Virus record (IMG/VR): IMGVR_UViG_3300042868_005269
Location: 1 to 61,405 of that record
Length of the DNA: 61,405 nt
Reading direction: 5' to 3' (one strand)
Source of the DNA: a virus
Lineage: Duplodnaviria; Caudoviricetes
A model generated the notes under the pieces. It ran no database searches, was not told the DNA's origin, and was given only the letters and a program-made list of their open reading frames with translations. Both the position numbers and the translations under genes were made by a program. This document shows positions 4,163-56,562 of the stretch, piece by piece. The stretch's first letter is position 1. Each line of letters opens with the position of its first letter.

Positions 4163-4666
4163 TCACCCCACCAAGACGTTACGCAATGCTTTGAACAGTG
4201 CGATGGCTTGATGCACAGTCAGCTTGTCGATGACATCGTTCGGTGACCACTCTTTAACCTCCGGGGTAGGCTCTGCAACGGGCGCTGCTTTGCGAGTGAT
4301 GGTGACGATCTTGCGTTGCTGTGCTTGAGGCTTCTTGGCCAGCGCCTTGATTGCCCTAGCTGACTTGATCGGCGTGTACTCATTCATCGTGACATAGAGC
4401 AAGTGTGCGCTCTCGCGCATCATGCCTTGCTTGCACATCTGCCCAAGCAGGGAGGTCACAGAGCTTGACTTAAACCCTTGCGTACCCAACGCAAGAGCGA
4501 CCTCTTTGCGGGTCTTGCCGGGGTTGTCTCGCACGTAGTCGAACGTGATGCGGGTCACGTTGTTGGTCACAGTGAAGTAGGGCTTGGCGGACTCGGGCAC
4601 AGGGGGCGAGGCAGGCGGCTCCCAATCGTCGAGGGCTTGGCGTAAAGCAGTTGCGATATCAGGCAT
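4163..4666 (-). CDS. Winged-helix DNA-binding protein
   Basis: FDYVRDNPGKTRKEVALAL...SVTSLLGQMCKQGMM wHTH pattern; AAGGAG RBS. Confidence 0.65.
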   Translation of the reverse strand: MPDIATALRQALDDWEPPASPPVPESAKPYFTVTNNVTRITFDYVRDNPGKTRKEVALALGTQGFKSSSVTSLLGQMCKQGMMRESAHLLYVTMNEYTPIKSARAIKALAKKPQAQQRKIVTITRKAAPVAEPTPEVKEWSPNDVIDKLTVHQAIALFKALRNVLVG

Positions 4667-5135: not shown

Positions 5136-5138
5136 TCA

Positions 5139-5264: not shown

Positions 5265-5572
5265 TTGAACCCCTCTGCTTTGGCTATTGCATCGCGGGCT
5301 GCGTCAAACGCCTGCACGATCTCGTCGTCCCTGTCAGGGTCGTAGCAGTTGTCCATCATGGCGTACAGTGCCGCCAGTAGGTCAGGTGCAGCGGCCATCA
5401 AGCAAGCGTTTGCCTTGGCATCCTTGAGCGTAGTGCGCTTGTCTCCTTTGACCCGAGCAAGGGGTGCAAAGCCCCCGGACTCGCACGAGACTAGGAACTC
5501 CCCGTTGTGGCCCTCGCGGTAGTGCCAAGGGCCGTCTGTGTAAAAACCTTTGCGGTTTGGTGCGTCGTTCAT
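5261..5572 (-). CDS. Hypothetical protein, TxGPW...ANAxLxAAAPDLL family (paralog of 6766-7077)
   Basis: YTDGPW...ANACLMAAAPDLL...AIAKAEG; AAGGAG RBS. Confidence 0.75.
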   Translation of the reverse strand: MNDAPNRKGFYTDGPWHYREGHNGEFLVSCESGGFAPLARVKGDKRTTLKDAKANACLMAAAPDLLAALYAMMDNCYDPDRDDEIVQAFDAARDAIAKAEGFK

Positions 5573-5597
5573 TTTCTATCTCCTTGGGGTTGTGCTG

Positions 5598-5616
5598 GTG
5601 ATACACCACGTATCAC
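5598..5616. promoter_or_regulatory. Palindromic operator-like site GTGATAC-N5-GTATCAC, copy 1
   Basis: gtgatac accac gtatcac; arms extend to 11 bp (5594-5620). Confidence 0.75.
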
Positions 5617-5627
5617 CAGCGGGTTGA

Positions 5628-6752
5628 TTACGCGGCGTAGGACTGGTCGAATATCTCGGCCAGCACTGCTGTGGGGTCATAGGTCACACTGTTCTTGAGC
5701 GCGTTGGCAAGCACCATCTCGTCGATTTTGTTGCGGTCGATCAGGCGCTCGGCCATCTCTGGGTCTTCGGGCCACACAGACTCACACATCAGCTCTATGA
5801 GCCACTGCTTGGAGCCAGCTTGCGCATCGTACAAAGCCTCCTGAAGCTCGATGGTGTACGAGTCATAGTCGTAGTCGTCATCATCAAGGTGATGCCACTT
5901 AGTCCAGTCGCTTGCATAGGCAGAACTGACACCCGTTGTCGATGGGGTATACCAAGAGGAGTAGTCCATGTACTCAACCACAGTCGGGTCGCGGTCAGTG
6001 GGCAGGGAGTCCCAGTCAATCAGGGCCACGCGGTCGGCCAGTGCTTGGAAGTGGATGATGTCGAGCGACTCCTTGTCGCTGTGCTCAGAGTAGTAGCCCA
6101 CGCTGATGTTGGTGCACTCGGGTATGACCTCGATGAACTCGGCCGTGTCGGTGTACACCCCTGTGTTGTCGGGCAGATACATCAGCGTCATGTCATCGTT
6201 GAGCGCATCACTCAGGGCATCGGCAAACGCATCGGAGCAGCAGCGCCCACGGCCTTGGTGTGTGATCACGCTGTCGATACCCCTGCGGTCAAAGGCAATG
6301 GCCCGGTCGAACTCGGCCAGTAGCTTGGCGTCATGCTTGGCCAGATGCGTAGCCCCGATACCGCCGCACTCCTCACCTTGTGTGAAGATGTAGTAGGCAG
6401 GCACACCGCTGTGCATCAGGTGCATGAGCATCGCCACACCCGCGCCATCATCGGCCCCCAAAGCTGCACCGTCAGCGTACCAGTAGGTAGGCGTCTGCTT
6501 GATCTTGTTGGGGCCTTCCTTGCGGTGCACAGTGTCAACGTGTGCAACGAACAGCGTCCGGTTGGATGCATTAAGGCGTGTGTCCACGTGCAGGTTGCCC
6601 GCCTTGTCGCGCTTGATGCGTGCATCAGCAGGGACACGATCTTCTAACCAGTCAGTCAAGCGGCGTGTACCCTCGCTGTTGTGTGGGCGCATCATCGACA
6701 GCGCACGGGCAAGGGTCTTGTACAAGATGGATTGTTTGTTGAGTGTAGTCAT
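5628..6752 (-). CDS. M28/M20-family zinc peptidase / amidohydrolase
   Basis: Metal-ligand motifs AHVDTVH, GADDGAG, GEECG, AIAFDRRG, YTD, NISVGYYSEH. Confidence 0.85.
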   Translation of the reverse strand: MTTLNKQSILYKTLARALSMMRPHNSEGTRRLTDWLEDRVPADARIKRDKAGNLHVDTRLNASNRTLFVAHVDTVHRKEGPNKIKQTPTYWYADGAALGADDGAGVAMLMHLMHSGVPAYYIFTQGEECGGIGATHLAKHDAKLLAEFDRAIAFDRRGIDSVITHQGRGRCCSDAFADALSDALNDDMTLMYLPDNTGVYTDTAEFIEVIPECTNISVGYYSEHSDKESLDIIHFQALADRVALIDWDSLPTDRDPTVVEYMDYSSWYTPSTTGVSSAYASDWTKWHHLDDDDYDYDSYTIELQEALYDAQAGSKQWLIELMCESVWPEDPEMAERLIDRNKIDEMVLANALKNSVTYDPTAVLAEIFDQSYAA

Positions 6753-6765
6753 GGATGTTTCTCCT

Positions 6766-7077
6766 TCAGAATGTTAATGTTGCTTTGGCGATGGCGGCGT
6801 GGGCTTTCTCTACCCAAGGTGCTTGCCGCTCGTCGTCTTGTTCGCTGTCAATGAACGGCATGAAGTATTGCAGTACCTCCAGCAAGTCAGGTGCGGCGGC
6901 GATCAGTACGGCGTTGGCTTGCCAGTTCACCAGTCGTTCGTCGTCGTCGGTACAGGCAATCAGTGGATGCCATTCGTCGCCATCCTCATGGCGTACTTTC
7001 TGTTCGGCGTAGATGTGCCGCCCTTGGTCGTTGAATTCAGTGCCGACGTACCACGGCCCCGGTGTGTGTTTGTTCAT
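6766..7077 (-). CDS. Hypothetical protein, HTPGPW...ANAxLIAAAPDLL family
   Basis: KHTPGPW...ANAVLIAAAPDLL...AAIAKA. Confidence 0.75.
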   Translation of the reverse strand: MNKHTPGPWYVGTEFNDQGRHIYAEQKVRHEDGDEWHPLIACTDDDERLVNWQANAVLIAAAPDLLEVLQYFMPFIDSEQDDERQAPWVEKAHAAIAKATLTF

Positions 7078-8498
7078 TTGGTTTCTCCATCAGTTTCGTT
7101 GGTTGCTTCTTCAGTCTCTGGCTCAGGCGCATTGTCCGGGTGGTACAGGGAGCCGTCTATCTCTACGTTGTCGGTGTCGTCGGTGTACCAGTTGTTCGAC
7201 TCCTCGCATCTCCAGCAGTCATCTTTGAGCTCGTACTCATGCGTGTCCTCGGTGTAGCAGATGTCATCGTCCTCGTTGTGGTAGTACGCATCACAAGACT
7301 CAACATACACAGCGTTGTCACTGTGCGTGTAGTCGCCGTCATGCAGCTCCACGATGTCGTTGTCGCCAAGCCACTCGCTGTCGTACCAGTCACCCTCTTG
7401 CGTCTGCACTGCGTTCTCGTTGTGCACGTAGTACTCGTGGCGTCTGCGGCCATTCACCCTCGTGTAGTTGTCGATGCAACACGGGCCGACTGTACTGTCG
7501 CCGCCGTAGCCGATCGAGTAACTGTCGTCCTCGTCCATACCCTCGCCGCAGTCATCGCAGGTACAGGTGTGGCCGTTGATGATGCCGCTGGTACTGCACG
7601 CCTCGTACCCATCGTATTGGCTGATGCGGAAGGTGTCGTCCTCCTCGACAACGTGCTGACTACCACCGTCGATGTACGGCATCAAGTACCCCTCACGGCG
7701 TAGCGGATAGCGCATGATGTGGATGTGGTCAGGCCAGCCGCGCCACTTGGCATAACCCAAGCCCTTGAGATACGCCTCGATAGCCTCGTCAGCACCTGAG
7801 TGCGAGCTGTACTCACGCTCTCGTTTGTATGAGCGCACGAACCCCTTGCCGTCATCGCTCTCGTGCACAAGGCAGCGACCCAGCACCATGCCGTCAGTGT
7901 CAGTCCGCACAGCCATGCCCCAGCCAAGCGATGGGTCGTACACCTCATAAGGGTGGCGCTCTTGCTTGTCATGGCACAGGATGTCGAAGCTGCTACTCAT
8001 ACATGAGCGAGGCCCGTGTATGACTGCATGAACCATCTTGTCCATCTCCTTGGTGATGATGGTCGAGCCACCATACGTGTACTTGGCACCGATGTCCCGG
8101 ATCAGGTTCGATGGTGCGTCAGGGAAGTGACGCGTCAAGTACTTGCCGATGGTGGTCACGACAGCCTTGGCATCGCTGTCGCCGTTGTGCATAGCCGCTT
8201 GCTCGTTGCGTGTGTAGGCTATGCGGTTGGGGTCAGTCAGCGCCTTGTGCGGCCACTCAAGCAACAGTTGCTGCCAGTCCTCGGCACGATGCTTGTACTC
8301 GGTCATCATGTCGAACACAGCAGGGTGCAGTTGATGGCGTTCGCGCTGTTGCTTGAACCACGTGCGGCCCTCATACACAAGGCGGTAGTTGCCGTAACCG
8401 ATACGCTCATGCACCCCGTCAGAGACGATGCGTGCGGAGGCGAAGAAGATGTAGTCCATGAAGTAGTGTGCTTCACGTGAGTCTTTCCATGTAGGCAT
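7074..8498 (-). CDS. Early protein with SCM / R-x-L-V / PYID core, zinc ribbon and acidic repeat tail
   Basis: GPRSCMS, GRCLV, YLMPYIDG, CDDCGE, Asp/Glu/Tyr-rich C-terminus; GGAGAAAGCAAA RBS places the start at 8498. Confidence 0.75.
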   Translation of the reverse strand: MPTWKDSREAHYFMDYIFFASARIVSDGVHERIGYGNYRLVYEGRTWFKQQRERHQLHPAVFDMMTEYKHRAEDWQQLLLEWPHKALTDPNRIAYTRNEQAAMHNGDSDAKAVVTTIGKYLTRHFPDAPSNLIRDIGAKYTYGGSTIITKEMDKMVHAVIHGPRSCMSSSFDILCHDKQERHPYEVYDPSLGWGMAVRTDTDGMVLGRCLVHESDDGKGFVRSYKREREYSSHSGADEAIEAYLKGLGYAKWRGWPDHIHIMRYPLRREGYLMPYIDGGSQHVVEEDDTFRISQYDGYEACSTSGIINGHTCTCDDCGEGMDEDDSYSIGYGGDSTVGPCCIDNYTRVNGRRRHEYYVHNENAVQTQEGDWYDSEWLGDNDIVELHDGDYTHSDNAVYVESCDAYYHNEDDDICYTEDTHEYELKDDCWRCEESNNWYTDDTDNVEIDGSLYHPDNAPEPETEEATNETDGETK

Positions 8499-8570
8499 TT
8501 TGCTTTCTCCAGTTTCAGATTTTAGGAAGTGATGGGTATACCGGGATCGGTCGCCACCCATCAAGGCGCT

Positions 8571-8589
8571 GTGATACATCCTGTATCAC
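8571..8589. promoter_or_regulatory. Palindromic operator-like site, copy 2
   Basis: gtgatac atcct gtatcac. Confidence 0.75.
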
Positions 8590-8593
8590 GGAT

Positions 8594-8821
8594 TCACTCA
8601 ACGACAACAGTCCAGCCCATCGCCTCGATGACTCGCTTAAGGGATGGGTCTGGCGTCATGCCAACGATGATCGTTGCTACCTTGTCGGTGTGGTTGATAC
8701 GCACCATCGTCATTGAACGCGGCACCATCCACACACCGCCATCCTTGACGGTGTCGAACATGTTGCGTGTCCACTTGACGGCGTTGCTCATGCCTGCCTT
8801 GGTGTCGAGGTCGTAACTCAT
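8594..8821 (-). CDS. Hypothetical protein
   Basis: MSYDLDTK...; ATGA overlap with 8818-9054. Confidence 0.65.
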   Translation of the reverse strand: MSYDLDTKAGMSNAVKWTRNMFDTVKDGGVWMVPRSMTMVRINHTDKVATIIVGMTPDPSLKRVIEAMGWTVVVE

Positions 8822-9054
8822 TTGCGTGCTTTCTTCTTTGGCAGTGTGAATGTGCCGAGCCACTCAGCGCCCTCGACTTGAGGGCAGTACATCTTGATCT
8901 CGTACTCGGCATCGTGTGGGCCGGGCACCATGTACAGGTTGAATGTGTACCCGTCAGCCTCCATCAGTTCGAGCAGTGCAGGCAAGTCTCGCGTCTCGTT
9001 GGTCGTTGCCCACATAGCGCAGGACGAGGCGTAGAAGTGTTGGTTCTCTTTCAT
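8818..9054 (-). CDS. Hypothetical protein
   Basis: 78-aa ORF, TAATG coupling, RBS. Confidence 0.65.
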   Translation of the reverse strand: MKENQHFYASSCAMWATTNETRDLPALLELMEADGYTFNLYMVPGPHDAEYEIKMYCPQVEGAEWLGTFTLPKKKARK

Positions 9055-9263
9055 TACATTTCTCCTTTGATGATCTGATCCATGCGGTGCTGGCGGTAGA
9101 ACTTGCAGAACAAGTCGTCGAACGCCGTGAGTAGGCGCTCTCTGTTGGTGGTGTCCGCTACGTAGAACGCTCGGGCGATGTGCCCTGCGAAACTGCCGCC
9201 CTCGCGCTCCATGAGCAGTGCCGCACTGAGCAGCATGTCGTGGTCTAAGTCCATTGCTTTCAT
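9054..9263 (-). CDS. Hypothetical protein
   Basis: GGSFA..IA.AF..AD..NR.RL..AF pattern; AAGGAG RBS. Confidence 0.7.
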   Translation of the reverse strand: MKAMDLDHDMLLSAALLMEREGGSFAGHIARAFYVADTTNRERLLTAFDDLFCKFYRQHRMDQIIKGEM

Positions 9264-9439
9264 TTGCTTTCTCCTTTGGTTAATTCACACAGATCATTGA
9301 GGCGCATCAGCGCCACCTCCAGCCTGCCTCGCACATCTTCGCGCTTGGGCAAGTCATCGAGGTTGTTCAAGGCGTAGCGCAGTTGCGCCCGCATGTAGTC
9401 CAGCTCGATGTGCCACTCGTGCTCTTGTCCTTCAGTCAT
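9260..9439 (-). CDS. 59-aa hypothetical protein
   Basis: Manual: MTEGQEHEWHIELDYMRAQL...; AAGGAG RBS, ATGA overlap. Confidence 0.65.
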   Translation of the reverse strand: MTEGQEHEWHIELDYMRAQLRYALNNLDDLPKREDVRGRLEVALMRLNDLCELTKGESK

Positions 9440-9456
9440 TTGCTTATCTCCTTTGG

Positions 9457-9723
9457 TTAAAGTGTGCAGTACCAGCGATGGGCGCTGATACGGCGGGTCT
9501 TCAGGCGTACGCCTGCGGTCTGGCGCAGATGGCTGTTGAACATCTTGACCAAGACGGACTCAACACCACCGCTTGGCATGGCGCGCAGTTGGTCGCTCTC
9601 GATGATGACAAAGCCTTGCGCTTTGAGCGTCTCGTGCAGTGCCTGCCAGTCATGCACCACCTTGGTAGGCACTGGGGTAGGTGCGGCGGTGTACGCCGTG
9701 TTGGGTATATCGTCGAGTCTCAT
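9457..9723 (-). CDS. Hypothetical protein
   Basis: 88-aa ORF, GGAG RBS, coupled. Confidence 0.65.
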   Translation of the reverse strand: MRLDDIPNTAYTAAPTPVPTKVVHDWQALHETLKAQGFVIIESDQLRAMPSGGVESVLVKMFNSHLRQTAGVRLKTRRISAHRWYCTL

Positions 9724-9926
9724 TTGCTTTCTCCTAAAAGTTCATCACGCCATGCGTTGAGGTCAGAGAGAACTTTCTCTCTCGTACCCCAGTAGCCCAT
9801 CTGTTTCAGCATTGCGTATGCAGTCGGGCTTTTGCTTCGGCTCATGCCTAGCATCTCCAGCTTGAGCATCTGGCGCAGTGCCAGTAGGCGAGCCGCATCT
9901 ATTTGGTGTCCGGTTAGTACAGTCAT
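9720..9926 (-). CDS. Hypothetical protein
   Basis: 68-aa ORF, ATGA overlaps. Confidence 0.65.
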   Translation of the reverse strand: MTVLTGHQIDAARLLALRQMLKLEMLGMSRSKSPTAYAMLKQMGYWGTREKVLSDLNAWRDELLGESK

Positions 9927-10186
9927 TCGGTTTCTCCCCAGACAGTGAAGCTGTGGATGGGCTCGCCGATGCTGTCCGTCCAGCCTGCTTTGTAGACGTC
10001 CACGTGCAGGTCGCTGTCTTTCTTGGCGTGGCCTGAGTAGTCAGCGCCAGCAAAGTTGATGTCGTACTCATCCCACACGACCCAGTCATCGGCCGTGGCC
10101 AGCGTGTCGCTGTGAAAGTTACGCTCGACAATCAGTGCCAAGCGATAGCCCTCGCAGAAGGCCCGCAGTTCTTGCAGTGTTCTCAT
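9923..10186 (-). CDS. Hypothetical protein
   Basis: 87-aa ORF, TAAGGAG RBS. Confidence 0.7.
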   Translation of the reverse strand: MRTLQELRAFCEGYRLALIVERNFHSDTLATADDWVVWDEYDINFAGADYSGHAKKDSDLHVDVYKAGWTDSIGEPIHSFTVWGETE

Positions 10187-10198
10187 TTACTTATCTCC

Positions 10199-10351
10199 TT
10201 ATTGGTTGATGTAGACCAGCACCATCTGTGCTTCTTGGCGAATGTCCATAGAGGCGAGCGTTGACTCGGCCTCATCCCTGTCCATGGGCGGGGTCGAGTG
10301 CGCTTGGCCTCGGGAGTCCCACCACTGAACGATCCATGCTTGTGTTCTCAT
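10199..10351 (-). CDS. 50-aa hypothetical protein
   Basis: MRTQAWIVQWW...; RBS leader identical to that of the 8498 start. Confidence 0.65.
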   Translation of the reverse strand: MRTQAWIVQWWDSRGQAHSTPPMDRDEAESTLASMDIRQEAQMVLVYINQ

Positions 10352-10429
10352 TGCTTTCTCCAGTTTCAGATGCCGCCCTGTTTGGGGTAGGCTCGACCAT
10401 GCGGGCGGCGTTGCATGGTTGAGTGGTTG

Positions 10430-10448
10430 GTGATACACGGTGTATCAC
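10430..10448. promoter_or_regulatory. Palindromic operator-like site, copy 3
   Basis: ggtgatacac g gtgtatcacc (10429-10449). Confidence 0.75.
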
Positions 10449-10452
10449 CGGG

Positions 10453-11370
10453 TTATTTGATGAGGTTCAATAGCGTCTGCGCCAGAGGTTGCCTGTCCAT
10501 GTGCGCCAGTATTCGTTTCTGTTGGGCCGCTAGGTCTGCGGCCAGTGCCCTAGCTGCGGGGGGTGCTGTCATATCTGCCGGGGACAGGCGCTCTGCCAAT
10601 GATGGTTTGGATGCCCTCAAGATGTTGCCCCTGTTCTTGGGCGGCTTGGTCTTGACCGCCGACACCATCTGCTTGTCGTCGTCATCGCGCATGAGTTCGG
10701 GAACCATCTGCGCCCAGTGGTTGGGCACATGGGCGTTGTCATCCAAGGCGTTCACTCGCTCGATGGCCTTGCGTAACAGCAACTCTTTGCGTGCCAGCTT
10801 CTCGTTCTCGGGGTCTTCGTCCAGTCTTTCGATGGTGGTCTCAAGCGTGGCCCGTGTGTAGCGCAGTAGCCGGGCTTTGCGTTTGATGCACAGGCTGATC
10901 GGGCTTGTGCGTTGGAAGGGTTGTTTGAACTTGGCTCGGTCACGGGGCGGCACTTCGTCAGCGGCCACACGGAATGCTTCTTTGATTCGGTCGGGCACAA
11001 AGTCTGTCCAGTGGGTGTGCTCGGGCAGTTCACGGTCAATGCGCCGTATCTTTTCCAGCTTCTCGTACAGTTTGTTAAGCACTGCGAAGTAGTCGGCCAC
11101 GAACTCCTCACGCTCAGGCGCTGGGGTCTTGGTCTTGTAGCGCACCATGCTTCGCACAATCCGGCGTTCGTGTTGCAAGGCTTCGATCACCTCGCCCCAC
11201 TGCTTGTCGGACTCTTTGCGCTGGCGCTTGGCGATGCTCTGGGCACTGCGTTGCCGCTTGATTTGTGCGAGGGTCAGGTCTGCCATTTCGGGGGATTGGC
11301 CTTCGCTGAATAGCTTGGCCCGTATTTCACGGTAGGCCCAGCCTGCGTATTTACGGTAGGGGTCGCTCAT
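10453..11370 (-). CDS. Basic helical hypothetical early protein (305 aa)
   Basis: AAGGAG RBS; Arg/Lys-rich; HWT/HWA repeated. Confidence 0.75.
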   Translation of the reverse strand: MSDPYRKYAGWAYREIRAKLFSEGQSPEMADLTLAQIKRQRSAQSIAKRQRKESDKQWGEVIEALQHERRIVRSMVRYKTKTPAPEREEFVADYFAVLNKLYEKLEKIRRIDRELPEHTHWTDFVPDRIKEAFRVAADEVPPRDRAKFKQPFQRTSPISLCIKRKARLLRYTRATLETTIERLDEDPENEKLARKELLLRKAIERVNALDDNAHVPNHWAQMVPELMRDDDDKQMVSAVKTKPPKNRGNILRASKPSLAERLSPADMTAPPAARALAADLAAQQKRILAHMDRQPLAQTLLNLIK

Positions 11371-11399
11371 GGATGCTCCTTTGTTGATGGGGTGAACGG

Positions 11400-11428
11400 A
11401 TTGTAGCTCAGATTACTTCGATGTAATC
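11400..11428 (-). promoter_or_regulatory. Possible sigma70 promoter with an overlapping GATTAC-N6-GTAATC dyad
   Basis: TACAAT on - strand at 11405-11400; weak -35; dyad at 11411-11428. Confidence 0.4.
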
Positions 11429-11429
11429 A

Positions 11430-11750
11430 CGCACAGACAGAAAACTGTCCGACCTTACTTCGCTTGGACGCAAAATTGGACAGTGGGAACCCGCATGGTT
11501 GCTGGTGTTGCCGTGTTTGTGTCCACTCTAATGGTGTTTTTTACAGGGAGTCAACGCCTGAACTTATTTTTTATTTAACAAAGCTGTGCCAACCTGCATG
11601 AAAGCAATTCTTCTTATCTATATCTTATTTAATATATATATATAGAGGGGACAAGAAAAGACAAACGCCTTTATGAATCAACGACTTACGCTGTCTTTTC
11701 TTGGGGAAACGCGATGGAGGATCGGACAGTCCCAAAAAGCGTTAACTAAA
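11430..11750. other. Candidate replication origin
   Basis: Non-coding; AT-rich/TA tract ~11605-11645; 12-bp inverted repeat 11652-11663/11692-11703 around an IHF consensus at 11676-11688; repeated GGAC(A)/TGTCC. Confidence 0.55.
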
Positions 11751-11753
11751 GTG

Positions 11754-11772
11754 GTGATACGCCGTGTATCAC
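11754..11772. promoter_or_regulatory. Palindromic operator-like site, copy 4
   Basis: gtgatac gccgt gtatcac; 11752-11778 identical to 12311-12337. Confidence 0.75.
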
Positions 11773-11775
11773 CGA

Positions 11776-12000
11776 TCAGGAGCCGTGCATGGCTTTCTTT
11801 TGCCTGATGTTGACTTCGTGCCAGAGCTGGGACATGGATGCACAGGGTATCGAGACGGTCGTGCCTACCATCGCCACGCTTGCGACCCAGTAGGGGTCGT
11901 ACTTGCCACGGGGGTAGTGGATTTGAGCGCACCAGAGTGCGCCTGCTTGGTCACGCCATTGGGTGAGGGTTTCGGTGGTGGGTTGCTTGAGGTTACGCAT
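11776..12000 (-). CDS. Hypothetical protein
   Basis: 74-aa ORF, AAGGAG RBS. Confidence 0.7.
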   Translation of the reverse strand: MRNLKQPTTETLTQWRDQAGALWCAQIHYPRGKYDPYWVASVAMVGTTVSIPCASMSQLWHEVNIRQKKAMHGS

Positions 12001-12013
12001 GGAAGTTTCTCCT

Positions 12014-12199
12014 TCAGTTGGTGTGGTGGATGCGGACGTAGCGGGCCATGGCCTTGAGCATGACCTTCTGGGGGACGCAGTACTTGATGGCTACCGCCTT
12101 GGCCACATAGGGCAGTTCGTGCGCTTGGATGTGGCACAGGATGTGGTGCAGTTCGTGGATGATGCGCTTGGCATCACGGGTTTGCAGGTTGTTGTGCAT
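12014..12199 (-). CDS. Hypothetical His/Lys-rich small protein
   Basis: 61-aa ORF, GGAG RBS. Confidence 0.65.
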   Translation of the reverse strand: MHNNLQTRDAKRIIHELHHILCHIQAHELPYVAKAVAIKYCVPQKVMLKAMARYVRIHHTN

Positions 12200-12312
12200 G
12201 GAAGTTTCTCCGATTGGTTTTGGCTATGAAGTCGCCGCCGTGATTGTTTAAGCCACAGGCGGTTAGACATGGGGAGGAACAACGGGCCAGCCACGCCCGT
12301 TGAGTTTGCTTG

Positions 12313-12331
12313 GTGATACGCCGTGTATCAC
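12313..12331. promoter_or_regulatory. Palindromic operator-like site, copy 5
   Basis: gtgatac gccgt gtatcac. Confidence 0.75.
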
Positions 12332-12334
12332 CGA

Positions 12335-12772
12335 TCACTTCAAGGCGTTCAGCAAAGCCATTGCTTGCTTGATCTGCTCTTGCAGAGTCTCGCCCTCGAA
12401 GTTGCCAAGGAAATCCATCGCCATAGCCTTGGCCGCCGTGCTGATGCGCTGTTGCTTGGCAGGGGCTTGGGCTTTCTCAGGGGTGAACCACACCATGACG
12501 TTGCGTCTCCACGATTGGAAGGCCGCGCCGTGGCGTGACTCACGCGTGGATTCTTCGCCGGTGTAGAACACGGCAGTCCCCGCCGTGTTCCATGTGTAGT
12601 TGCAGCCGTACTTCGTAGCATGGACTTTCGCAAGCTCCTCAAGAAGCGTGATACATGGTGTATCACCAAGTTCTTTCGCCGCCGCTTGCATGGCGTCCCC
12701 GTATGAGATGCCCGCAGTAAGGAAGTCTGAGTAGGCTTTGACGGCGGTTTGGATTGTGGTCAGTTTTTTCAT
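12335..12772 (-). CDS. First gene of the early arm, hypothetical protein
   Basis: GGAG RBS before MKKLTT; 145 aa. Confidence 0.75.
   Translation of the reverse strand: MKKLTTIQTAVKAYSDFLTAGISYGDAMQAAAKELGDTPCITLLEELAKVHATKYGCNYTWNTAGTAVFYTGEESTRESRHGAAFQSWRRNVMVWFTPEKAQAPAKQQRISTAAKAMAMDFLGNFEGETLQEQIKQAMALLNALK
12648..12666. promoter_or_regulatory. Palindromic operator-like site, copy 6 (intragenic)
   Basis: gtgatac atggt gtatcac, encoding GDTPCIT. Confidence 0.7.
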
Positions 12773-13072
12773 GGATTTTCTCCGTTGGGTTGCTGTCTTG
12801 TAGGGCCATTCCCTACTCGACAAACCCTAGTTTCCGGCAACCCCCATTCGATAGCCCCTGAGCCCCCTATTTTCGAGGCAGAAAGGCCACTTTCCAGACC
12901 CCACCGTACCCCCATGGGCCTATATTAGAGCGTGACACGGCTTCGTAGTACAACACTGTTCCACACCCGCTCCCACCACTTTGTAAAACACTAGACAAAG
13001 CAACACACCCCCCTGTATAAAAACACAGCCCTCTAAAAAATTTTATAAAAAATTTTAAAAAAACTGGGGACG

Positions 13073-13105
13073 AAAAAAAGCCCCCGGTCTTGCGACAGGG
13101 GGCTT
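13073..13105 (-). terminator. Rho-independent terminator (- strand)
   Basis: gccccc/gggggc stem followed by U7 on the - strand. Confidence 0.65.
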
Positions 13106-13148
13106 AAAGGGTCTCTCAACCCAAGGAGAAGCAATGAATCAACCGAAG

Positions 13149-13178
13149 TTGCGCCATCACCAAAAGTGAGTATATACT
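13149..13178 (+). promoter_or_regulatory. Putative sigma70 promoter for the late arm
   Basis: TTGCGC-N18-TATACT upstream of terS. Confidence 0.5.
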
Positions 13179-13219
13179 GCGCACATCGGGAAAGCAACCC
13201 GCAACTCCACTTGGATTAA

Positions 13220-27768: not shown

Positions 27769-30700
27769 ATGGCAATTTCATTTGTTGCTGCTGGTGCTGT
27801 AGCCACGGGCACTAACCCGACCGTTGCTGTTCCAACCGGGTATGCTACGGACGATTTTTTAGTTCTTGCGGTAGCGGCAAATGCGGCTGTAACTACGCCA
27901 GCGGGGTGGACTTTAATTGGTTCTCAAATCACAACGCCCCGAATTTACTTGTATCGTAAATTTGCGACATCTTCAGAGTCAAGCGTAACTGTCACTGTTG
28001 CTTCAACTACAGCGGTGGGTGTCATGTTGGCTTACCGTGGGGTAAATACAACCGATACTATCTCAACAGGCAGAACGGCAACTTCCACAACAATTGCCAC
28101 AAACACATTAACTACAACATACGCCAACGAATATGTAGTTAGCGCGTATGCGATGACAATTGGTGCAGCAACATGGACTGCCCCAGCTTCAACAACCAGC
28201 CGTGTAGATTCAGCGAGTACTGCTGCTCTTGACGGTCTTCTTATTGTTGACGAACTACAGGCCGCAGCAGGCGTATCCACAGCCCGAACCGCAACAAGCT
28301 CAGTGTCTAAAGCACTGGGTGCTATTTCTTTTTCCATCTACACAAGTGATCGCTATTGGGTAGGCGGTTCTGGTACATGGAACACAACTTCCACAACCAA
28401 CTGGTCTTTCTCATCGGGCGGCGCAAGTGGCGCGCCCCGTCCAACAGCGCGGGACAATGTAGTGTTTGACCAAGCAGGCACTTACACCGTCACCCGTACC
28501 GGCGCTTTGACTTGTTTGGACTTCACAGTATCAGCAGGTACGGTAACATTTAGCAGCACAGGAACACTTGCTATTAGTGGGTCTTTGACATTACTGGCTG
28601 GAACTGTATGGAGCGCCACAGGAGCCAACACGTTCAACTCTACGTCTACAGGTAGAACGATTACCACTAACGGTGTGACAATAACCGGAGCCATTACATT
28701 TAACGGCGTTGGTGGTGGCTGGACATTAGGTAGTGCATTAACCACATCAGGCGCGTTTAGTCTTACAAACGGGACTTTTGATACTTCTGTTAGTAATTAC
28801 GCAGTCACAGCAGTGGGTACGCATAATACTGCTACTGGCGCAACATTAAATCTTAATGGCTCAACATACACGCAGTCCGCAGCGGCTTCTTATTGGACGG
28901 TTGACTCCGGTGCAATCATAAACGCTGGGACATCAACTATAAGCTTCCCAAACGGTTGCATTTTATTTCGAGGGGGAGGTAAAACTTATAATAATATAAC
29001 AGTAACTGGATATATAAACATTACTGATGGCTCCAATACAATCGGGGATTTGACTTATACATTCAGCGGTGGTGGTGTTATTGCCATTGGTGGGAATACC
29101 ACCATTACAACATTAGTCGCATCGGGTACAAGCTTAACATCAAGAATTCAGATACAAGGAAATATCTTCTATTTTGCCGGTGGCTTTGGTTATAGGTCAA
29201 GCACACCTCGCACATTAACTGTTGGCACATGGGTCACAAAACAGTATATTGATTTTCGTGACATTACAGCGGCTGGAGCATCTGCTCCGTGGTCAGGAAC
29301 AAGTTTTGGTGACTGTGGCGGCAACAGTAACATAACATTTCCTGCGCCCAAAACAGTGTATTGGAACCTTGCTGGAGCCAATAACTCAAGTGCAAATGGA
29401 TGGGCGGCAACCAGCGGTGGGTCGCCTGCAACTTCCAATTATCCTTTGGCGCAAGACACGGCAGTTATTGATAACAGTAGTGCTGGAAGCTCAATAGATA
29501 TGGTCGGTAATATAGGAAGTATTTCAACTTCATCAAGAACAAGCGCCATTACGTTAATACTTCGCAGTACCCTGTATGGTAATTTAACCACTGGGTCTGG
29601 TATTACATATTCCTACGTTGGCGGCGTTGGTTTTATCATTGCGGGTAATTCACCACAAACAATTTCATTAAATGGAAAAAATATAGAGGCCCCTCTTACT
29701 TTGGTTTCAACAAGCACGGTAACGCTTCAAGACGCTTTTACATCAAATTACGGAATAACAGTTGTACAAGGTACTTTTGATGCCAACAACTTTTCGGTTA
29801 CGGCAACTGTTTTGAATACTTCGATTCCGTTGACAAGAACGGTTGCTTTCGGTTCTGGCACATGGACGCTATCATCTAATGGAGTCGTAGTTAACGCAAA
29901 TGGGAGTTTATTGACCGTTACTGGTAGCGGTACAATCAGCCTAACAAGTGCATCTGCCAAAAGCTTTCTTGGCAACGGATTGACCTATTACAACATCAAC
30001 CAAGGCGGCGCAGGTGCTTTGACCATTATTGGATCAAACACTTTTAACGACATCACCAACACCTACAACGCTACTGGCGCAACCTCTATTCTTTTTCAGG
30101 CTGGCACAACAAGCACGTTTACCAATTGGAATGCAAGCGGCGCGTCTGGGCGACTCTTGACAATAGGCTCCTCAACAGCGGCATCCCACACGCTGTCCAA
30201 AGCATCTGGCACGGTAAATGCTGATTTCTTGTCGATTAGTCGTTCAAATGCTACTGGCGGCGCTACTTGGAACGCAGCCAACTCAACAGACGGCGGCAAC
30301 AACACGGGTTGGCTTTTTGGCGTCACTTATGCCAGCGCCTTCTCCGACACAGCAACAGGGTCGGACACGTTCTCCGCAGCCTTTGCGTTCTTAGGCAGCA
30401 TTGCTGAGACAGCCACCGCAACGGACGCAATCGACACAATCGCCACGCTGAACTCAGCAACGGACGAAACAGCGACCGGAACTGACGAAATCACGCCTAC
30501 GTACCTTGCGTACCCTGCTGTGAACGAGACTGCAAACGCTACGGATAGTGTGTTTGGCAACTTCGCATACATGGTTTTCACCGCCGAAACTGCGGCGGCC
30601 ACAGATGAAATGGCGGGGGGCAATGGGTTATTTGCGCAGTTGTCCGAGGCGGTAACCGCCAGCGACAGCAATGTCGCACTTATGGTGCTGGCATGCCAAA

Positions 30701-31110
30701 TCGGGGAGACCGCCACGGCCACGGACGCCGTGCGGCGCGTCACGATCTTTGTTGGGGCAATCGCGGAACTGGCCACGGGAACGGATGCGGTGCGTGCGCT
30801 TGTCCGCTTTACGGCTCGAATCCTTGAGACCACAACCGCCACGGATGTGACGTTGGTAGCTCCTTCGGTGTACCGCGCACGGGTTGCTGAAGCCGCAACC
30901 GCGCTGGAGGCGCTGTTCCCCTCAGGCGTTTTCAACGTCCAGTTTGTAGACTCTGCCACAGCCCTTGACGCAGTGGTTGGTGCGTACCTGTGGAACCCCA
31001 TTGATGACAACCAGACTGCAAACTGGCAAAATGTCAACAACAGCCAATCCCCAACGTGGACTGATGTAAACAACAGTCAAACTCCGGGGTGGACCCCCGT
31101 TATTCCGTAA
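27769..31110 (+). CDS. Large fibre/spike protein with beta-solenoid core and C-terminal 20-aa repeats
   Basis: Thr/Gly/Ser-rich; RYWVGGSGTW module; eleven ETATxTD repeats. Confidence 0.75.
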   Translation: MAISFVAAGAVATGTNPTVAVPTGYATDDFLVLAVAANAAVTTPAGWTLIGSQITTPRIYLYRKFATSSESSVTVTVASTTAVGVMLAYRGVNTTDTISTGRTATSTTIATNTLTTTYANEYVVSAYAMTIGAATWTAPASTTSRVDSASTAALDGLLIVDELQAAAGVSTARTATSSVSKALGAISFSIYTSDRYWVGGSGTWNTTSTTNWSFSSGGASGAPRPTARDNVVFDQAGTYTVTRTGALTCLDFTVSAGTVTFSSTGTLAISGSLTLLAGTVWSATGANTFNSTSTGRTITTNGVTITGAITFNGVGGGWTLGSALTTSGAFSLTNGTFDTSVSNYAVTAVGTHNTATGATLNLNGSTYTQSAAASYWTVDSGAIINAGTSTISFPNGCILFRGGGKTYNNITVTGYINITDGSNTIGDLTYTFSGGGVIAIGGNTTITTLVASGTSLTSRIQIQGNIFYFAGGFGYRSSTPRTLTVGTWVTKQYIDFRDITAAGASAPWSGTSFGDCGGNSNITFPAPKTVYWNLAGANNSSANGWAATSGGSPATSNYPLAQDTAVIDNSSAGSSIDMVGNIGSISTSSRTSAITLILRSTLYGNLTTGSGITYSYVGGVGFIIAGNSPQTISLNGKNIEAPLTLVSTSTVTLQDAFTSNYGITVVQGTFDANNFSVTATVLNTSIPLTRTVAFGSGTWTLSSNGVVVNANGSLLTVTGSGTISLTSASAKSFLGNGLTYYNINQGGAGALTIIGSNTFNDITNTYNATGATSILFQAGTTSTFTNWNASGASGRLLTIGSSTAASHTLSKASGTVNADFLSISRSNATGGATWNAANSTDGGNNTGWLFGVTYASAFSDTATGSDTFSAAFAFLGSIAETATATDAIDTIATLNSATDETATGTDEITPTYLAYPAVNETANATDSVFGNFAYMVFTAETAAATDEMAGGNGLFAQLSEAVTASDSNVALMVLACQIGETATATDAVRRVTIFVGAIAELATGTDAVRALVRFTARILETTTATDVTLVAPSVYRARVAEAATALEALFPSGVFNVQFVDSATALDAVVGAYLWNPIDDNQTANWQNVNNSQSPTWTDVNNSQTPGWTPVIP

Positions 31111-43674: not shown

Positions 43675-43719
43675 AACGCCAGCGCCATGCTGGCGTACCT
43701 ACAATTCAGGAAGCAGGCT

Positions 43720-46700
43720 ATGCCCATTTACAGCGTACAGGGTCCAGATGGACGTATTTATGATGTGGAGGGGCCTGCTGGCGCTTCCGAAGAACAGATT
43801 CTGGGGGCGGTGCGCCGTCAGTTTTTGGCAACTCCGGCCTCTGCGCCAGAAAAAAAGGGCTCCGGGTTGGGCGACATTGCTCGCTCATTTGGTCTGGGGG
43901 CGGTTGGCGCAACGAAAGCTATTACCAGTGCGGCGGGGGCGGATAACGAGGCAGCGCGTGCGCTCGGTAGAGCCGGTGAAAGTCTGCAAGAAGGCTTTAG
44001 CGCAAGCCGCAAAGCTGAGTTGCAGGCACAAGCCGAGCGCATGAAGAAAGCCGAAGCGTCTGGCTCAACCCTTGAAGAAATTAAAGCCGGTGCGCTGAAC
44101 GTGCTGGAAGCGCCGTTGCAGTCTGCCGCGCAGGCCGTGGGCTCATTTGCTCCACTCATTCCCACAATGTTCTTGGCCAAGCCTTTGGCGGCTTTGGGTC
44201 TGGGGGCACGCGCCATCATGGGTGTTCGTGGTGCTATCGGGGGAGCGCAGGGTGCCGGTGCAGTCAAGCAAAATATCTACGACACAGTGCTGGAAGCGGA
44301 AAAAACCGACGGTAAGACAGATGAGCAAGCTGCCGCTGCCGCCTCGCGGGCTCAGTCCTACATCAGCGAAAACGCAGACCAGATTCTTCTGGGCACCGGT
44401 CTTGGTGTTGCGGCAGGTACTAGCGGTGTTGAACGCATTTTGCCCGGCGGCGTGCGCGGTGCTGCAAGCAAGACGCAAGAAGCACTCGCCAAGCGTCTGG
44501 GCGCACGCACAGCCTCGGGTATCACAACAGCCGCAGCCGAGATGCCGCTGGAAGGTCTGCAAGGCGGACAAGAACGGCTTGCCGCTAACCTTGCACTGCA
44601 ACGCACAGGCCGTGACGTAGATGCGTTTACCGGCGTAGCAGGTCAAGCCACGCAAGAAGCACTGACAGGCGCACTGGGGGCGGGACCCATCGGCGCACTT
44701 GTACCAGATCGCCGTGCAGAAATTGCAGAAAAAGAGCGTCAGCAAAAAGAGCAAGCCGACGCTGTGGCCGCAGCCGAAGCTGCCAAGAACACCCCTGAAG
44801 CCCTGCGCCAGCTTGATACAGAGTTCCGCACTGCAGACCAGCAGCTCAAAGCGTTGAACGCGCAGCTCACCGCAAACAGACCCAAGAAGGGGGCCACAGA
44901 CGAGCAAAAGCAAGCGTATGACACGCTCAAAGCCCAGCGCGATGAGTTGTTGACCACGTACAAACCCCTGCGCCAAGAGTTCATGCAGCGCAAAGAAGCA
45001 ATCGACGAGCTTCAAATGGCTGAGCAGTCGGCAATTGAGGTTGCAGCAGCGCAAGGTCAGGCTGCGGCAAAGCTGCCACTGCCGTCCGACATCCCCGGTG
45101 CACAGCCGTTCCAGTTGTCCGACACCTCACGTTTGATGAACGACTACGACACCATGCGCGGCCAAGTGTCCGCGTTGGAGCAGCAACTGGCTGCGGGCCC
45201 TGATCTGGATACCCAGACACAACTGACGCAGCAGCGCGGGCAACTCATGGCGCGTATGAACGAGATGGCTCCGGTCATTGAGGAACGTGGCGGGGTCACC
45301 GACACCGAGCCGGAGTTTGCCAAGAAAATGGCTGCGGCCGAAAAAGAACGCCTGCGCCTGCTTGAGATTGGTGACTTTGATGCTGCGGCAAACCAAGCCG
45401 AGAAAGTCCGTGACCTGCAAACACGCGCTCCCTTCTTGCAAGAGCTGAACGACTTCCGCACAAAAGCAGGGCAGAACCGGGAGCTGACGCTGGAAGAGCC
45501 TGCACAGCCAGAAGGCGCGGGCGTTAAGTACGTGTCGCCTACGGGCAAACCAGTCACGCCTTTCCCAGCAACGGCTACGGAAGCTGCACCGCTGCCTGCC
45601 GACAAGCCCGAAGAACTGGCGGCAGTCCAGACTGCCCAGACCAACGTAAACGCTGCGCAGACTGCGCTGGATGAGGCCGTCAAGACCAAAGACACAACCA
45701 AAATCTTTGGCGCAGTGGACGCGCTCAACCAAGCACAAAACACAGTGGCTCGGGCACAAGAGGATGTGGGTCGCCCACTACTCAAGCCCGCAGTGCTGGA
45801 CATTTTCAGCCCCGCCAACTTGTTTCGCACAGCTTTTGCAAACAACGATACAAAACTGCTCAATGACCTTGCGTCCCACGCCGATACTACGGCGCTGCGG
45901 GCAGCCCTCAACCAGAACCTCAGTGAGCGCGAGAAGCTGGTTAACGTGTTGGAGAACCGCGCTGGTGTTGGTGGTGATGAAAAAGCCATCGACCCCCGTA
46001 CCGGCGAGCCCGGCGAGAGGCTCAAGAGCGTCAAGCGCGAACGCGCTGACTTGTTCTCCCAACTGTACGACGCTCGTCAACAGGCGTTGTTCAAGAACGG
46101 CCAAAACCTTGAGACCATAGAAAGACCTCGCACCGAGCTTGCAGAAGACTTTCAGCTTGATAAAACCGGCAAGCCTGTAGTTGGCGAAGACGGCAAACCT
46201 GTAGTCGTGCGGCAATACGAAAAACCCGTGCTTGATAAAAACGGCCGTCCGGTTATGGACACCGTTCGCTTACAGGACATCTACGACCAAGGTGGCCCCG
46301 CCGCAGTTGAGTACGAGCGCGTCATGCAAGACGTTGAGGACCTGTCCAAGAAAGTCACGACCAAGCAAGGCAACGCCAAGAAGTCTCTGTACGAGCAGCT
46401 CATTGATTTGGCTGCGCAGCACTCTGCGTTGGTGGCGCAAATGGAATCGGGCATTGCTACGCCCAACATGCGGGAGAAGACCACTGCGTTGCAAGCCAAG
46501 ATGGGTAAAGGCGAAGCCCCGGCTGAGCGCCAGATGGATGCCAAGGAAAAGTTTGACCTCCAGCGCCGCATCGACACGCTGGTTAACAAGTACCGCCTGA
46601 CCGAAGGCCAAATTGCTCCCGTCCGTGACCAGATCACGAAGTTGTACAACAGCCTGTACAAGACCACGCCGCTTGAGAAGACCAGTAAGGCTGCGGACAG

Positions 46701-56161: not shown

Positions 56162-56311
56162 TTACTTGAGGTCGTCTTCGGCTACGTCCAGCAGCGCAGA
56201 GAAGCGCTCATACAGCTCTTTCACGACTTCGGCAGGCACGTTGTAGTTGGCCATGTAGATGTGCGTCAGCAGTTCTTCGTTACTCAGGGTTTCAGGTTGT
56301 ACTCGTGACAT
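56162..56311 (-). CDS. 49-aa hypothetical protein
   Basis: GGAG RBS before MSRVQPETLSNEELL. Confidence 0.6.
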   Translation of the reverse strand: MSRVQPETLSNEELLTHIYMANYNVPAEVVKELYERFSALLDVAEDDLK

Positions 56312-56562
56312 ATTCTTCTCCATGCTTCGTCCGCTGTGTTTGAGGACTGCATTATTGTTAAAAGGGTTTCCACGCGGTGGCGGTACGCGACAAAGACTTC
56401 TGATCCGTTGAACCAGTTGTAGACAGTCTGTCGTGTGACGCCGAGGGCGTAGGCGATTTTGGTGACAGGGAAATCCAAGTGGATAGCCCAACGCCCAAGC
56501 TGGTTGCCCAGAGACTTGGGAGTCTTCATCACGTCGTCAATGATTTTTTGTGAGTAGGCCAT
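56284..56562 (-). CDS. Cro/XRE-like helix-turn-helix regulator
   Basis: KIAYALGVTRQTVYNWFNG. Confidence 0.85.
   Translation of the reverse strand: MAYSQKIIDDVMKTPKSLGNQLGRWAIHLDFPVTKIAYALGVTRQTVYNWFNGSEVFVAYRHRVETLLTIMQSSNTADEAWRRICHEYNLKP

Follow-up and report, generated by a model that had tools for sequence, protein, structure and literature searches.

The window analysed here is the whole of IMG/VR virus record IMGVR_UViG_3300042868_005269 (61,405 bp, estimated to be 96% complete), and the element in question is a set of six palindromes, GTGATAC-N5-GTATCAC, that punctuate its early gene arm. Minus-strand genes fill two stretches, read from about 13,000 to 1 and then from 61,405 to 53,167, beginning with small early genes, followed by DNA polymerase, exonuclease, helicase and primase-helicase. 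The DNA polymerase open reading frame (ORF; 3-1808, minus strand) runs off the left end of the record, placing the contig break inside that gene. Plus-strand genes occupy 13,220 to 53,028 and include the large terminase, portal, head and tail genes, with a 3113-aa ORF last. This layout matches that of coliphage N4, whose gp50 virion RNA polymerase also ends the structural arm. The palindromes are best explained as the form taken in this genome by a family of short recognition sites that fold as hairpins and occur across the lineage, and their most likely reader is the predicted dimeric product of the first early gene, which we call G1. In order of transcription, G1 and the six sites are as follows.

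12335..12772, minus strand: G1, first early gene and candidate hairpin reader; 145 aa from an ATG at 12772, an orphan, predicted homodimer
12648..12666, minus strand: site 6, first in transcription order; 8-bp stem, 3-nt loop; within G1 codons 36-42 (GDTPCIT)
12312..12332, minus strand: site 5; 8-bp stem, 5-nt loop; 2 nt past the G1 stop; RNA fold energy -11.9 kcal/mol
11753..11773, minus strand: site 4; 8-bp stem, 5-nt loop; 2 nt past the stop of ORF 11776..12000; inside a 27-nt repeat
10429..10449, minus strand: site 3; 9-bp stem, 3-nt loop; 3 nt past the stop of a 305-aa ORF (10453..11370)
8571..8589, minus strand: site 2; 8-bp stem, 3-nt loop; 4 nt past the stop of ORF 8594..8863; upstream of a 501-aa ORF
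5594..5620, minus strand: site 1, last in transcription order; 11-bp stem (GCTG plus core), 5-nt loop; RNA fold energy -19.5 kcal/mol

The initial annotation had described six such sites and none elsewhere, and our scans bear this out. The pattern is matched exactly six times, at 5598, 8571, 10430, 11754, 12313 and 12648, and these are the only matches in the entire 61,405-bp record, in which a backwards control pattern has none. No match arose in 100 dinucleotide-preserving shuffles, and a tolerance of up to two mismatches added no site. The half-sites are otherwise nearly missing from the genome, with GTGATAC found once more (60790) and GTATCAC once more (44519). As had been noted, five sites closely follow minus-strand stop codons, at 5628, 8594, 10453, 11776 and 12335, from which the 14-nt-arm core is separated by 11, 4, 4, 3 and 3 nt, respectively, and the full stem by 7, 4, 3, 2 and 2 nt. 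Site 1 thus begins 7 nt past the stop of an ORF for an M28-like peptidase, and it ends 21 nt before the ATG at 5572. The sixth site does lie within the first early gene, when that ORF is taken from its ATG at 12772. Positions 11752-11778 and 12311-12337 are identical over 27 nt, as claimed, and the identity extends on neither side. Within this genome the arms are invariant and the spacer is a constant 5 nt of variable sequence, also as described. In three of the six copies the outer spacer bases pair, giving an 8-9-bp stem with a 3-nt loop, and site 1 alone reaches 11 bp; RNA fold energies of the six range from -9.1 to -19.5 kcal/mol. These results support the view that the six sites are a real, non-random and protein-specific signal restricted to the early arm. 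The likeness of TATCAC to lambda CI/Cro half-sites, which had also been remarked upon, is probably due to chance.

Relatives were sought in IMG/VR with the large terminase (TerL), which matched at least 598 related stretches; the best 80, with 77-98% amino acid identity, were used, and 97 sources were examined in a survey of their palindromes (individual relatives are given by handles such as L123). None of the best 80 TerL relatives contains GTGATAC-N5-GTATCAC, and among the matches listed the motif occurs in multiple copies in two other IMG/VR contigs, six copies in each, both of them 85-95% identical relatives. Most loci that reach far enough upstream of TerL carry a repeated palindrome of their own sequence. 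By unsupervised counting, 72 of the 97 sources have a repeated stem, and with an arm list curated from the survey outputs we obtained 211 unique sites in 61 loci. The arm types comprise GTGAGAC, GTGGGAC(A), GTGGCAC(A), GGGGACA, GGGACA and GGGGAC; GCTGACA, GCGGACA, GCAGACA, AGAGAGA, AGATAGA, AGAGAG-aatt and GTGGTC-aatt; and GGGGAG, GGGGAA, GGGTCA, GGGGTA and CTGTGAG. Arms are constant inside each genome, and between genomes both arms differ in concert. The initial annotation had seen no compensatory changes, which holds inside the window genome but not among its relatives, where both arms change. Even genomes whose TerL is 98% identical differ in their arms, with GTGATAC in the window, AGATAGA in L123 and GGGGACA in L124. 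Where flanks are homologous, the hairpin alone is swapped between relatives: ahead of the 501-aa gene, for instance, alignable flanks enclose GTGATACAggaTGTATCAC in the window and AGAGAGAggttTCTCTCT in L126, and at the position of site 2 both L126 and L141 have AGAGAGA-N3/4-TCTCTCT between homologous flanks. The sites are confined to the early arm in all six whole or near-whole records, with four sites at 7706-11666 of 62,653 bp in one relative, five at 5693-9515 of 55,241 bp in another, and three, four and five to seven sites, clustered within a few kb of the early arm, in three further records. Some arm families are perfect 16-bp palindromes, for example GTGGTCAATTGACCAC in four of five copies. 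In L155 (locus 4533, 6424), L143 and L153, some sites combine a GTGAGACA arm with a TGTCCCAC arm; these hybrids, which occur beside perfect GTGAGAC or GTGGGAC sites, may represent a specificity switch caught in progress. An Rfam search at E up to 1 over 5000-13400 found nothing.

Exact arms within one genome cannot separate a duplex operator from a hairpin, but relatives, spacer lengths and extra pairs can. The initial annotation took the invariant arms to indicate duplex DNA rather than a hairpin and named concerted arm changes in relatives as the observation that would speak against this; such changes are what the relatives show, and the argument therefore fails. Concerted change alone is not decisive, because a co-evolving dimer on a palindromic operator would fit it too. 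Two further properties bear on the question. In 10 of the 60 genomes that have at least two sites, spacer length varies by 1 nt from copy to copy while the arms stay fixed (5, 5, 6 and 6 nt in L131; 3, 3, 3 and 4 nt in L139; 3 and 4 nt in AGAGAGA genomes). The stems also carry copy-specific extensions of differing sequence (GCTG, TCG, CCC, ACTC, AAACTT, TAGT and others), and three or more extra stem pairs were observed at 20 of 169 sites against 2.6 expected by chance, although part of this count comes from a nested GAACG extension in the GGGACA family that may be a conserved motif rather than structure. Spacer variation and copy-specific extra pairs together indicate that the sites are folded hairpins rather than rigid duplex operators. 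Across sites the loops are 3-6 nt long with no conserved base, and we found no conserved start base or fixed-distance element downstream of the sites. It follows from sequence comparison that the stem, rather than loop or flank, would be what is read. As to the form in which it is read, the data favour neither RNA nor extruded or duplex DNA.

The placement of the sites follows simple rules, which we analysed for 205 unique sites with enough flank, counting upstream ORFs of at least 50 codons whose stop is at most 45 nt away or overlapping. By a loose, over-counting test that we do not rely on, 73 of the 205 lie in an open frame. Among the remaining 132, 109 have an ORF stop within 45 nt upstream or overlapping, and for 90 of these the gap from stop to stem is -5 to +12 nt (median 3, interquartile range (IQR) 2-7). 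The next start codon preceded by a Shine-Dalgarno sequence is a median of 62 nt away (IQR 28-77, n=93), and several window sites lie 15-30 nt before a start codon. The first copy has a position of its own. In first genes of types A and B it lies within the coding sequence, where the peptide is altered to suit the arms (GDTPCIT, GGTPCPT, GGTPCAT, GETPCPT; GRERISL, and others), and type C genomes have it 17-30 nt ahead of the start codon. The second copy directly follows the G1 stop, as site 5 does here, and this placement recurs in most of 39 relatives, where a T-run and a conserved, GC-rich hairpin that ends in a short stretch rich in T lie downstream of it. The initial annotation had also raised cassette exchange at the sites, for which we found weak support: ends of high-scoring segment pairs (HSPs) fall no more than 30 nt from a site in 13 of 101 cases, where 5.8 would be expected, they are not independent of one another, and several come from genomes with a different hairpin, which is itself enough to end an alignment. 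The other 88 breakpoints lie elsewhere, mostly at other gene borders. Two further ideas were dropped. Rho-loading was set aside because the 30 nt past the sites are neither C-rich nor G-poor (A.258, G.257, C.251, T.234), and a role as activator sites because no -10-like element occurs at a fixed offset from them.

What, then, could read the stems? G1 is present in all relatives that reach far enough (46 loci in one iterative search and 57 in another; a search with a single type C member matched 14), and 34 members tested matched no Pfam or PHROG family, single weak hits aside. Its N-terminal ~100 residues occur as distinct types, among which a C-terminal two-helix tail is shuffled independently. 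When the N-domains of 57 loci were grouped by single linkage, the clusters followed arm type. The cluster of 25 loci has GGGGAC(A)/GGGACA arms in 24 and none found in one; all 16 members of the next have GTGNNAC; all five of another have AGAGAGA or AGATAGA. A second five-locus cluster has GCNGACA in two and none found in three, a cluster of three has AGAGAGA in one and none found in two, and three singleton N-domains each come with an arm type of their own. Type A arms are single paired steps apart (ATA, AGA, GGA, GCA). Between the window and L123/L126, neighbouring early proteins are 79-96% identical, the alignable part of G1 is limited to its C-terminal third, and the hairpins all differ. 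Distal sites, which lie amid freely recombining genes, always match the G1 type.

In an AlphaFold 2 (AF2) model of G1 (predicted local distance difference test score (pLDDT) 87.8), the residues encoded by site 6 form a loop between helices 2-34 and 41-55. A homodimer is predicted through the long first helix, with a score of 0.65 against 0.00 for the best control. Solved pairs attained this mark in 20 of 30 cases and single chains in 1 of 23, counts that apply only roughly to G1, for which our own alignment was used. Contacts agreed at 96% or more between dimer runs, with partner pLDDT of at least 76. Structural alignment of G1 with VIA-align gave a best Z of 5.4, to chorismate-mutase-like helices (root-mean-square deviation 3.7, 76 residues aligned), and KH/RimP-like rows at Z 4.0-4.9, all too weak to assign a fold.

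The initial annotation had listed the gene carrying site 6 among candidate binders, and this suggestion gains from the comparison, since the G1 type tracks arm sequence, unlike the other candidates on that list, and its product is a predicted homodimer. A helix-turn-helix (HTH) protein (56284..56562) keeps the same recognition helix across five arm types, and a GTGGGAC genome and an AGAGAG genome have versions of it that are 91% identical. A winged-helix-like protein (4163..4666) does not track arm type either: it is 73% identical between L123 and L124 and 88% between L213 and L175, both pairs with different arms, and just 33-38% identical between like-armed genomes. The third, the ORF at 2619, has a homologue in one of five whole relatives. 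Overall, the earlier interpretation was right in seeing a protein-specific early-arm signal and in naming G1 as a possible binder; its duplex argument failed, and its HTH binders and cassette exchange were not supported.

An alignment of 20 relatives defines the context upstream of G1, and it bears, together with the last gene of the structural arm, on the question of which polymerase transcribes the early genes. The features concerned are these.

13169..13197, minus strand: sigma-70-like TTGCTT-N17-TATACT directed toward G1; conserved in the 20 aligned relatives, recognised by consensus only
13073..13103, minus strand: strong CCCCC...GGGGG hairpin followed by T7, terminator-like; ~70-100 nt downstream of the promoter; conserved in the 20 relatives
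12278..12302, minus strand: conserved GC-rich hairpin plus TTGTT, terminator-like, after site 5; covarying stems downstream of G1 in most of the 39 relatives
43687..53028, plus strand: giant 3113-aa virion-type protein; N4 gp50-like N-terminus, HExxH, LPD38

By its consensus, TTGCTT-N17-TATACT is a probable early promoter for the host polymerase. Toward G1 the order is promoter, hairpin with T7, AT-rich palindrome, G-rich leader and the G1 ribosome-binding site. Between the promoter and the terminator-like element lie two small hairpins and a TTCTCCT that is exposed. The terminator-like element may serve as a leader attenuator or mark where a ~90-nt small RNA ends; the idea that a small RNA from upstream of G1 pairs with the arms was dropped, as no correlation was seen by eye. 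The AT-rich palindrome, AAAATTTTTTATAAAATTTTTT at 13035-13056, is kept in all aligned relatives. Just upstream of AAAATTTTTTATAAAATTTTTT, many relatives (L144, L138, L171, L140 and others), but not the window, have a 14-16-bp palindrome, GTCTAACATTAGAC, whose half-site TGTC(T/C/A)AAC recurs ~10 nt past the GC hairpin that follows G1; it may be an operator for another regulator. The G1 leader itself (12773 to ~13000, including 12897-12913) is ~250 nt long, strongly conserved and without an Rfam match, and it contains G-rich blocks, TGGGAGCGGGTG..AAACAGTGTT and GGTGGGGGTACGGTGGGGT, around a variable hairpin. The leader may function as structured RNA or as a site in the DNA. The early region contains 4 promoter-like sites (4.6 in shuffled sequence), none of them at a hairpin.

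No RNA polymerase was detected in the giant protein. A weak match to the 'virion RNA polymerase' PHROG (E 6e-9) covers residues 101-559, in the N-terminal part. BLASTP against N4 gp50 aligns just an N-terminal stretch and the HExxH stretch. The protein consists of a glycine-rich N4 gp50-like N-terminus, then ~900 residues of K/E/A/Q-rich helix (residues 340-1290 are, by eye, low-complexity helical), an HExxH zincin motif near residue 1322, a domain with an AGTPWCTG motif, a beta-solenoid or leucine-rich-repeat-like region in an AF2 model of residues 1440-2260, and LPD38 near the C-terminus. Pfam found LPD38 only and no T7-like polymerase domain, and phmmer against PDB sequences found nothing. 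PF00940 was matched nowhere in the record at E values up to 10, in a search in which the control genomes gave none either. At least 238 homologues of 1700-3400 aa exist in metagenomes, and the 120 listed have no polymerase Pfam domain, only LPD38. The AF2 model of 1440-2260 (pLDDT 81.5) had no polymerase among its Foldseek PDB hits, the best of which (E 0.039) was to unrelated repeat proteins, and an ESM Atlas search with residues 501-1900 gave a best score of 0.78, to unnamed clusters, and no lead. The giant protein was set aside as reader of the sites. GenBank phages had no DNA match to 5000-13500 and no tblastn match to the first 1800 aa of the giant protein, and the 24 sequencing runs with matching DNA were all lake or freshwater metagenomes, none of them RNA. 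The lineage is a freshwater one with N4-like architecture and no detectable phage RNA polymerase. The lack of a detectable phage polymerase and the conserved promoter together argue that the host polymerase transcribes the early arm.

We propose, with a probability of about 0.35, that G1-binding hairpins in nascent early RNA gate early transcription from block to block, with feedback on the G1 message. Host RNA polymerase would initiate at the conserved promoter upstream of G1, and G1 would be the first product. G1 would then bind the hairpin in or beside its own message and the copies directly past the stops of successive blocks, and bound G1 would decide passage through the adjacent terminator-like structures into the next block. 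The mode would be elongation gating on nascent RNA in the manner of nut/N, with feedback on G1. The sites themselves, their restriction to the early arm, fold-like properties, position rules and co-variation with the G1 N-domain, and the lack of a detectable phage RNA polymerase, are observed; that G1 binds, that RNA is the bound form, and which sign the effect would have are what we infer.

Several observations weigh against this proposal. Internal G.U pairs (sense strand) are absent from all 170 perfect unique sites and from the seven with true single internal mismatches, in a census from which six L179 rows were dropped as register artefacts. Four of those seven mismatches are A.C on the sense strand, equivalent to G.T on the template, and transition mismatches that are exclusively A.C are the opposite of what a sense-RNA stem predicts, although the number is small and two of the four come from related L155 sites. 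The loops show no strand bias (ACT 7 and AGT 5, CCA 8 and TGG 4, AAAT 5 and ATTT 5, AAC 2 and GTT 7), and neither do the flanks, which carry at most 0.25 bits at every position and no boxA-like sequence. T-runs (at least four T within 25 nt downstream) follow only 34 of 135 non-coding sites. In six relatives (L155, L153, L143, L158, L160 and L168) the GC hairpin after G1 precedes the specific hairpin instead of following it. The correlation between G1 and arms is in part linkage, because two sites lie in or beside G1. A symmetric G1 homodimer, as predicted, suits dyad-symmetric DNA better than a single RNA hairpin, and in Foldseek the G1 fold gave a best E of 0.81 and no convincing RNA- or DNA-binding fold.

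Many of these points suit action at the DNA level, where a G1 dimer on duplex DNA or on a protein-stabilised cruciform would serve as a roadblock or repressor, in stoperator fashion, or as an activator, timing or shutting the early blocks and its own gene. We consider this the main rival, nearly as likely as RNA gating. The arms are exact dyads around a sequence-free centre, some families are perfect 16-bp palindromes, and the lack of G.U goes with single mismatches that resemble half-site variants, such as GTGAGACA-cca-TGTCCCAC in L155. The absence of strand asymmetry in loops and flanks and the predicted symmetric homodimer point the same way, and extra pairs with a variable loop suit a cruciform as well as RNA. 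A rigid duplex operator, however, would not be expected to tolerate 1-nt spacer changes and copy-specific pairs, and stems of 6-8 bp with arbitrary loops extrude poorly unaided. Moreover, the conserved promoter carries no site, G1 has no recognisable DNA-binding fold, and a roadblock encoded by the first gene to be expressed would throttle the early genes farther along. An explanation that needs no protein is that the sites terminate transcription weakly or stabilise the 3' ends of upstream messages, as T7 RNase III sites or repetitive extragenic palindromic (REP) sequences do, and are kept identical by recombination or gene conversion at junctions resembling the promoter(early) stem-loops (PeSLs) of T4-like phages. 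The start of the stem a median of 3 nt past a stop codon, the T-runs after a quarter of non-coding sites (34/135), the moderate fold energies and the mild excess of breakpoints near sites are in keeping with it, and PeSLs offer an established precedent, to judge from portions of two reports (PMC2839356, PMC4122927). Structure alone leaves unexplained the exact identity of 7-nt arms with no G.U, the precise swap of hairpins between homologous flanks, the copy in or just before the first gene in every genome and the match to G1 type; most breakpoints (88/101) fall elsewhere, and no sigma-70 promoter is attached. We therefore think it unlikely.

The N4-like plan, with an early/replication arm, a structural arm and a giant virion-type gene last, naturally raises the possibility of hairpin promoters of the N4 type, at which a phage RNA polymerase, injected or made early, recognises an extruded template-strand hairpin and starts a few nt downstream. 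The early promoters of N4 are 5-7-bp template-strand hairpins with 3-nt loops, according to passages of PMC4496689. Inverted repeats resembling N4 promoters are visible at the N4 left end. The giant protein's weak match to the N-terminal part of the 'virion RNA polymerase' PHROG, the several sites 15-30 nt before a start codon and the four mismatches that are G.T on the template strand would fit such promoters. We nevertheless consider them quite unlikely, since no T7-like polymerase domain was found in the record or the giant protein, the 120 listed homologues have LPD38 only and the 1440-2260 model matches no polymerase (best Foldseek E 0.039). The loops of 3-6 nt keep no base, no start or fixed-distance element is conserved, one site is within a coding region, and arm type differs between phages with 98% identical structural genes. 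Signals for DNA transactions in the first-entering DNA, such as staged entry, priming or origin function, packaging or nicking, are very improbable. The sites do lie within ~7 kb beside the point where the arms diverge, together with the AT-rich palindrome and other conserved non-coding blocks, but their placement follows gene borders and the first gene, not distance from any end, one relative was scored with terminal repeats at another position, and nothing ties the sites to primase or terminase.

Among known systems, the closest to the RNA gating that we propose is that of phage lambda, which has one of its two nut sites (nutL and nutR) near the regulator's own gene or leader and the other just past an early-gene stop, ahead of terminators. 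As with N and nut, a phage-specific hairpin is paired here with a small early protein, its reader role being predicted, and specificity differs among relatives. Sites likewise lie in the regulator's leader or gene and just past its stop, upstream of terminators, although in six relatives that order is reversed. Unlike nut sites, of which there are 2, the palindromes number 4-9 per genome, the stem is invariant and the loop variable, and no boxA-like flank is present. G1 is folded, predicted dimeric, 145 aa long and without likeness to N, a protein described in part of PMC3526286 as having RNA-, NusA- and polymerase-binding regions. The system is not a member of the lambda N/nut family. Stoperators of Cluster A mycobacteriophages are many identical short intergenic sites at which one phage protein, the L5 repressor, stops elongating polymerase (PMC9283540, PMC6550527); they are asymmetric 13-mers, bound by a monomeric HTH repressor, orientation-dependent, genome-wide and found in temperate phages. 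Here, too, site sequence co-varies among relatives with the candidate reader, through the G1 N-domain and subject to the linkage noted above. In contrast to stoperators, our sites are perfect palindromes, hairpin-forming and restricted to the early arm; there is no HTH reader, the sole clear HTH protein (56284..56562) being invariant across arm types, and no lysogeny genes were seen.

With N4 the sites share short hairpins upstream of early genes and a similar genome layout, and stem bases of N4 virion RNA polymerase promoters are read through the major groove, as stated in a section of PMC4496689. They differ in having no detectable RNA polymerase, no conserved loop with the central purine and closing pair of the N4 type, and no conserved start base; the three N4 promoters also differ in stem, whereas the arms here are identical. 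PeSLs lie between small early genes, begin at the upstream stop, include a stem-loop and are linked to module shuffling, as excerpts of PMC2839356 describe them. PeSLs carry a sigma-70 consensus promoter and stems that are not sequence-invariant, unlike the promoterless sites here, at which breakpoints are weakly enriched. Each of these four closest systems shares features with the palindromes and fails a defining one. CRISPR repeats with Cas6/Csy4, and REP elements with REP-associated tyrosine transposases (RAYTs), also have a stem that is constant within a genome and changes between genomes on both sides together with a dedicated reader. Unlike the first, the palindromes are single sites at gene borders, with no array and no Cas6-like protein; unlike the second, they have no conserved flanking tetranucleotide, and no HUH protein was noticed in the subset of ORFs scanned. 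We did not find this lineage or such a system described in the open-access literature on N4-like hairpin promoters, PeSLs and post-stop stem-loops, which is not proof of absence. What appears to stand out, judging by the genomes compared, is a private pair of regulator and site with an orphan candidate reader and an unusual stem-reading logic.

A broader and somewhat more doubtful idea is that G1 is the founder of an undescribed class of small dimers that read 6-8-bp hairpin stems and are re-programmed by single paired steps (GTG-ATA-C, -AGA-, -GGA-, -GCA-), giving dozens of orthogonal pairs and private control of the early operon for each co-infecting phage; the lineage would then be an N4-like one that lost its virion polymerase and uses the host polymerase plus a switch instead. 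If G1 does read the hairpins, it would represent a new sequence-specific protein/hairpin pair with many natural orthogonal variants, with a usefulness akin to that of the MS2, PP7, boxB/N and Csy4 pairs, and it would explain early-gene timing in a very abundant, uncultured freshwater phage lineage (at least 598 TerL-positive IMG/VR stretches). An N4-like plan with a giant virion protein that lacks a detectable polymerase also bears on the origin or decay of virion-polymerase phages.

Some further elements of the early arm deserve mention. Sites 3 and 2 are each followed, 8-12 nt downstream, by a second, gene-specific hairpin (10397-10418 and 8531-8562, respectively; minus strand). Both are kept in relatives with covarying stems, and the first also keeps its loop, (C)TACGCCGC(C); they may be leader structures or terminators that lack a U-tract. 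Several relatives (L070, L123, L128, L133 and L185) keep an AT-rich motif, CTTAAAATAACCC-AAAAAATAGTGTCCGAAACT, downstream of the third hairpin, and the window has a diverged version of it at ~11,730-11,700. The best sigma-70-like match in the early arm, TTGACA-N18-AACAAT (10/12), lies at 4905-4961 (minus strand), where a second match overlaps it. This block, which the last hairpin precedes by ~650 nt, shows 98% identity in L051 and ~74% in distant relatives, and it may mark the start of the next temporal class. In the structural arm, the 1113-aa ORF 27769..31110, which has no Pfam, PHROG or PDB match, contains a segment (28001-30000) with a GC fraction of 0.456 against ~0.56 elsewhere, and it is probably a swapped receptor-binding or tail module.

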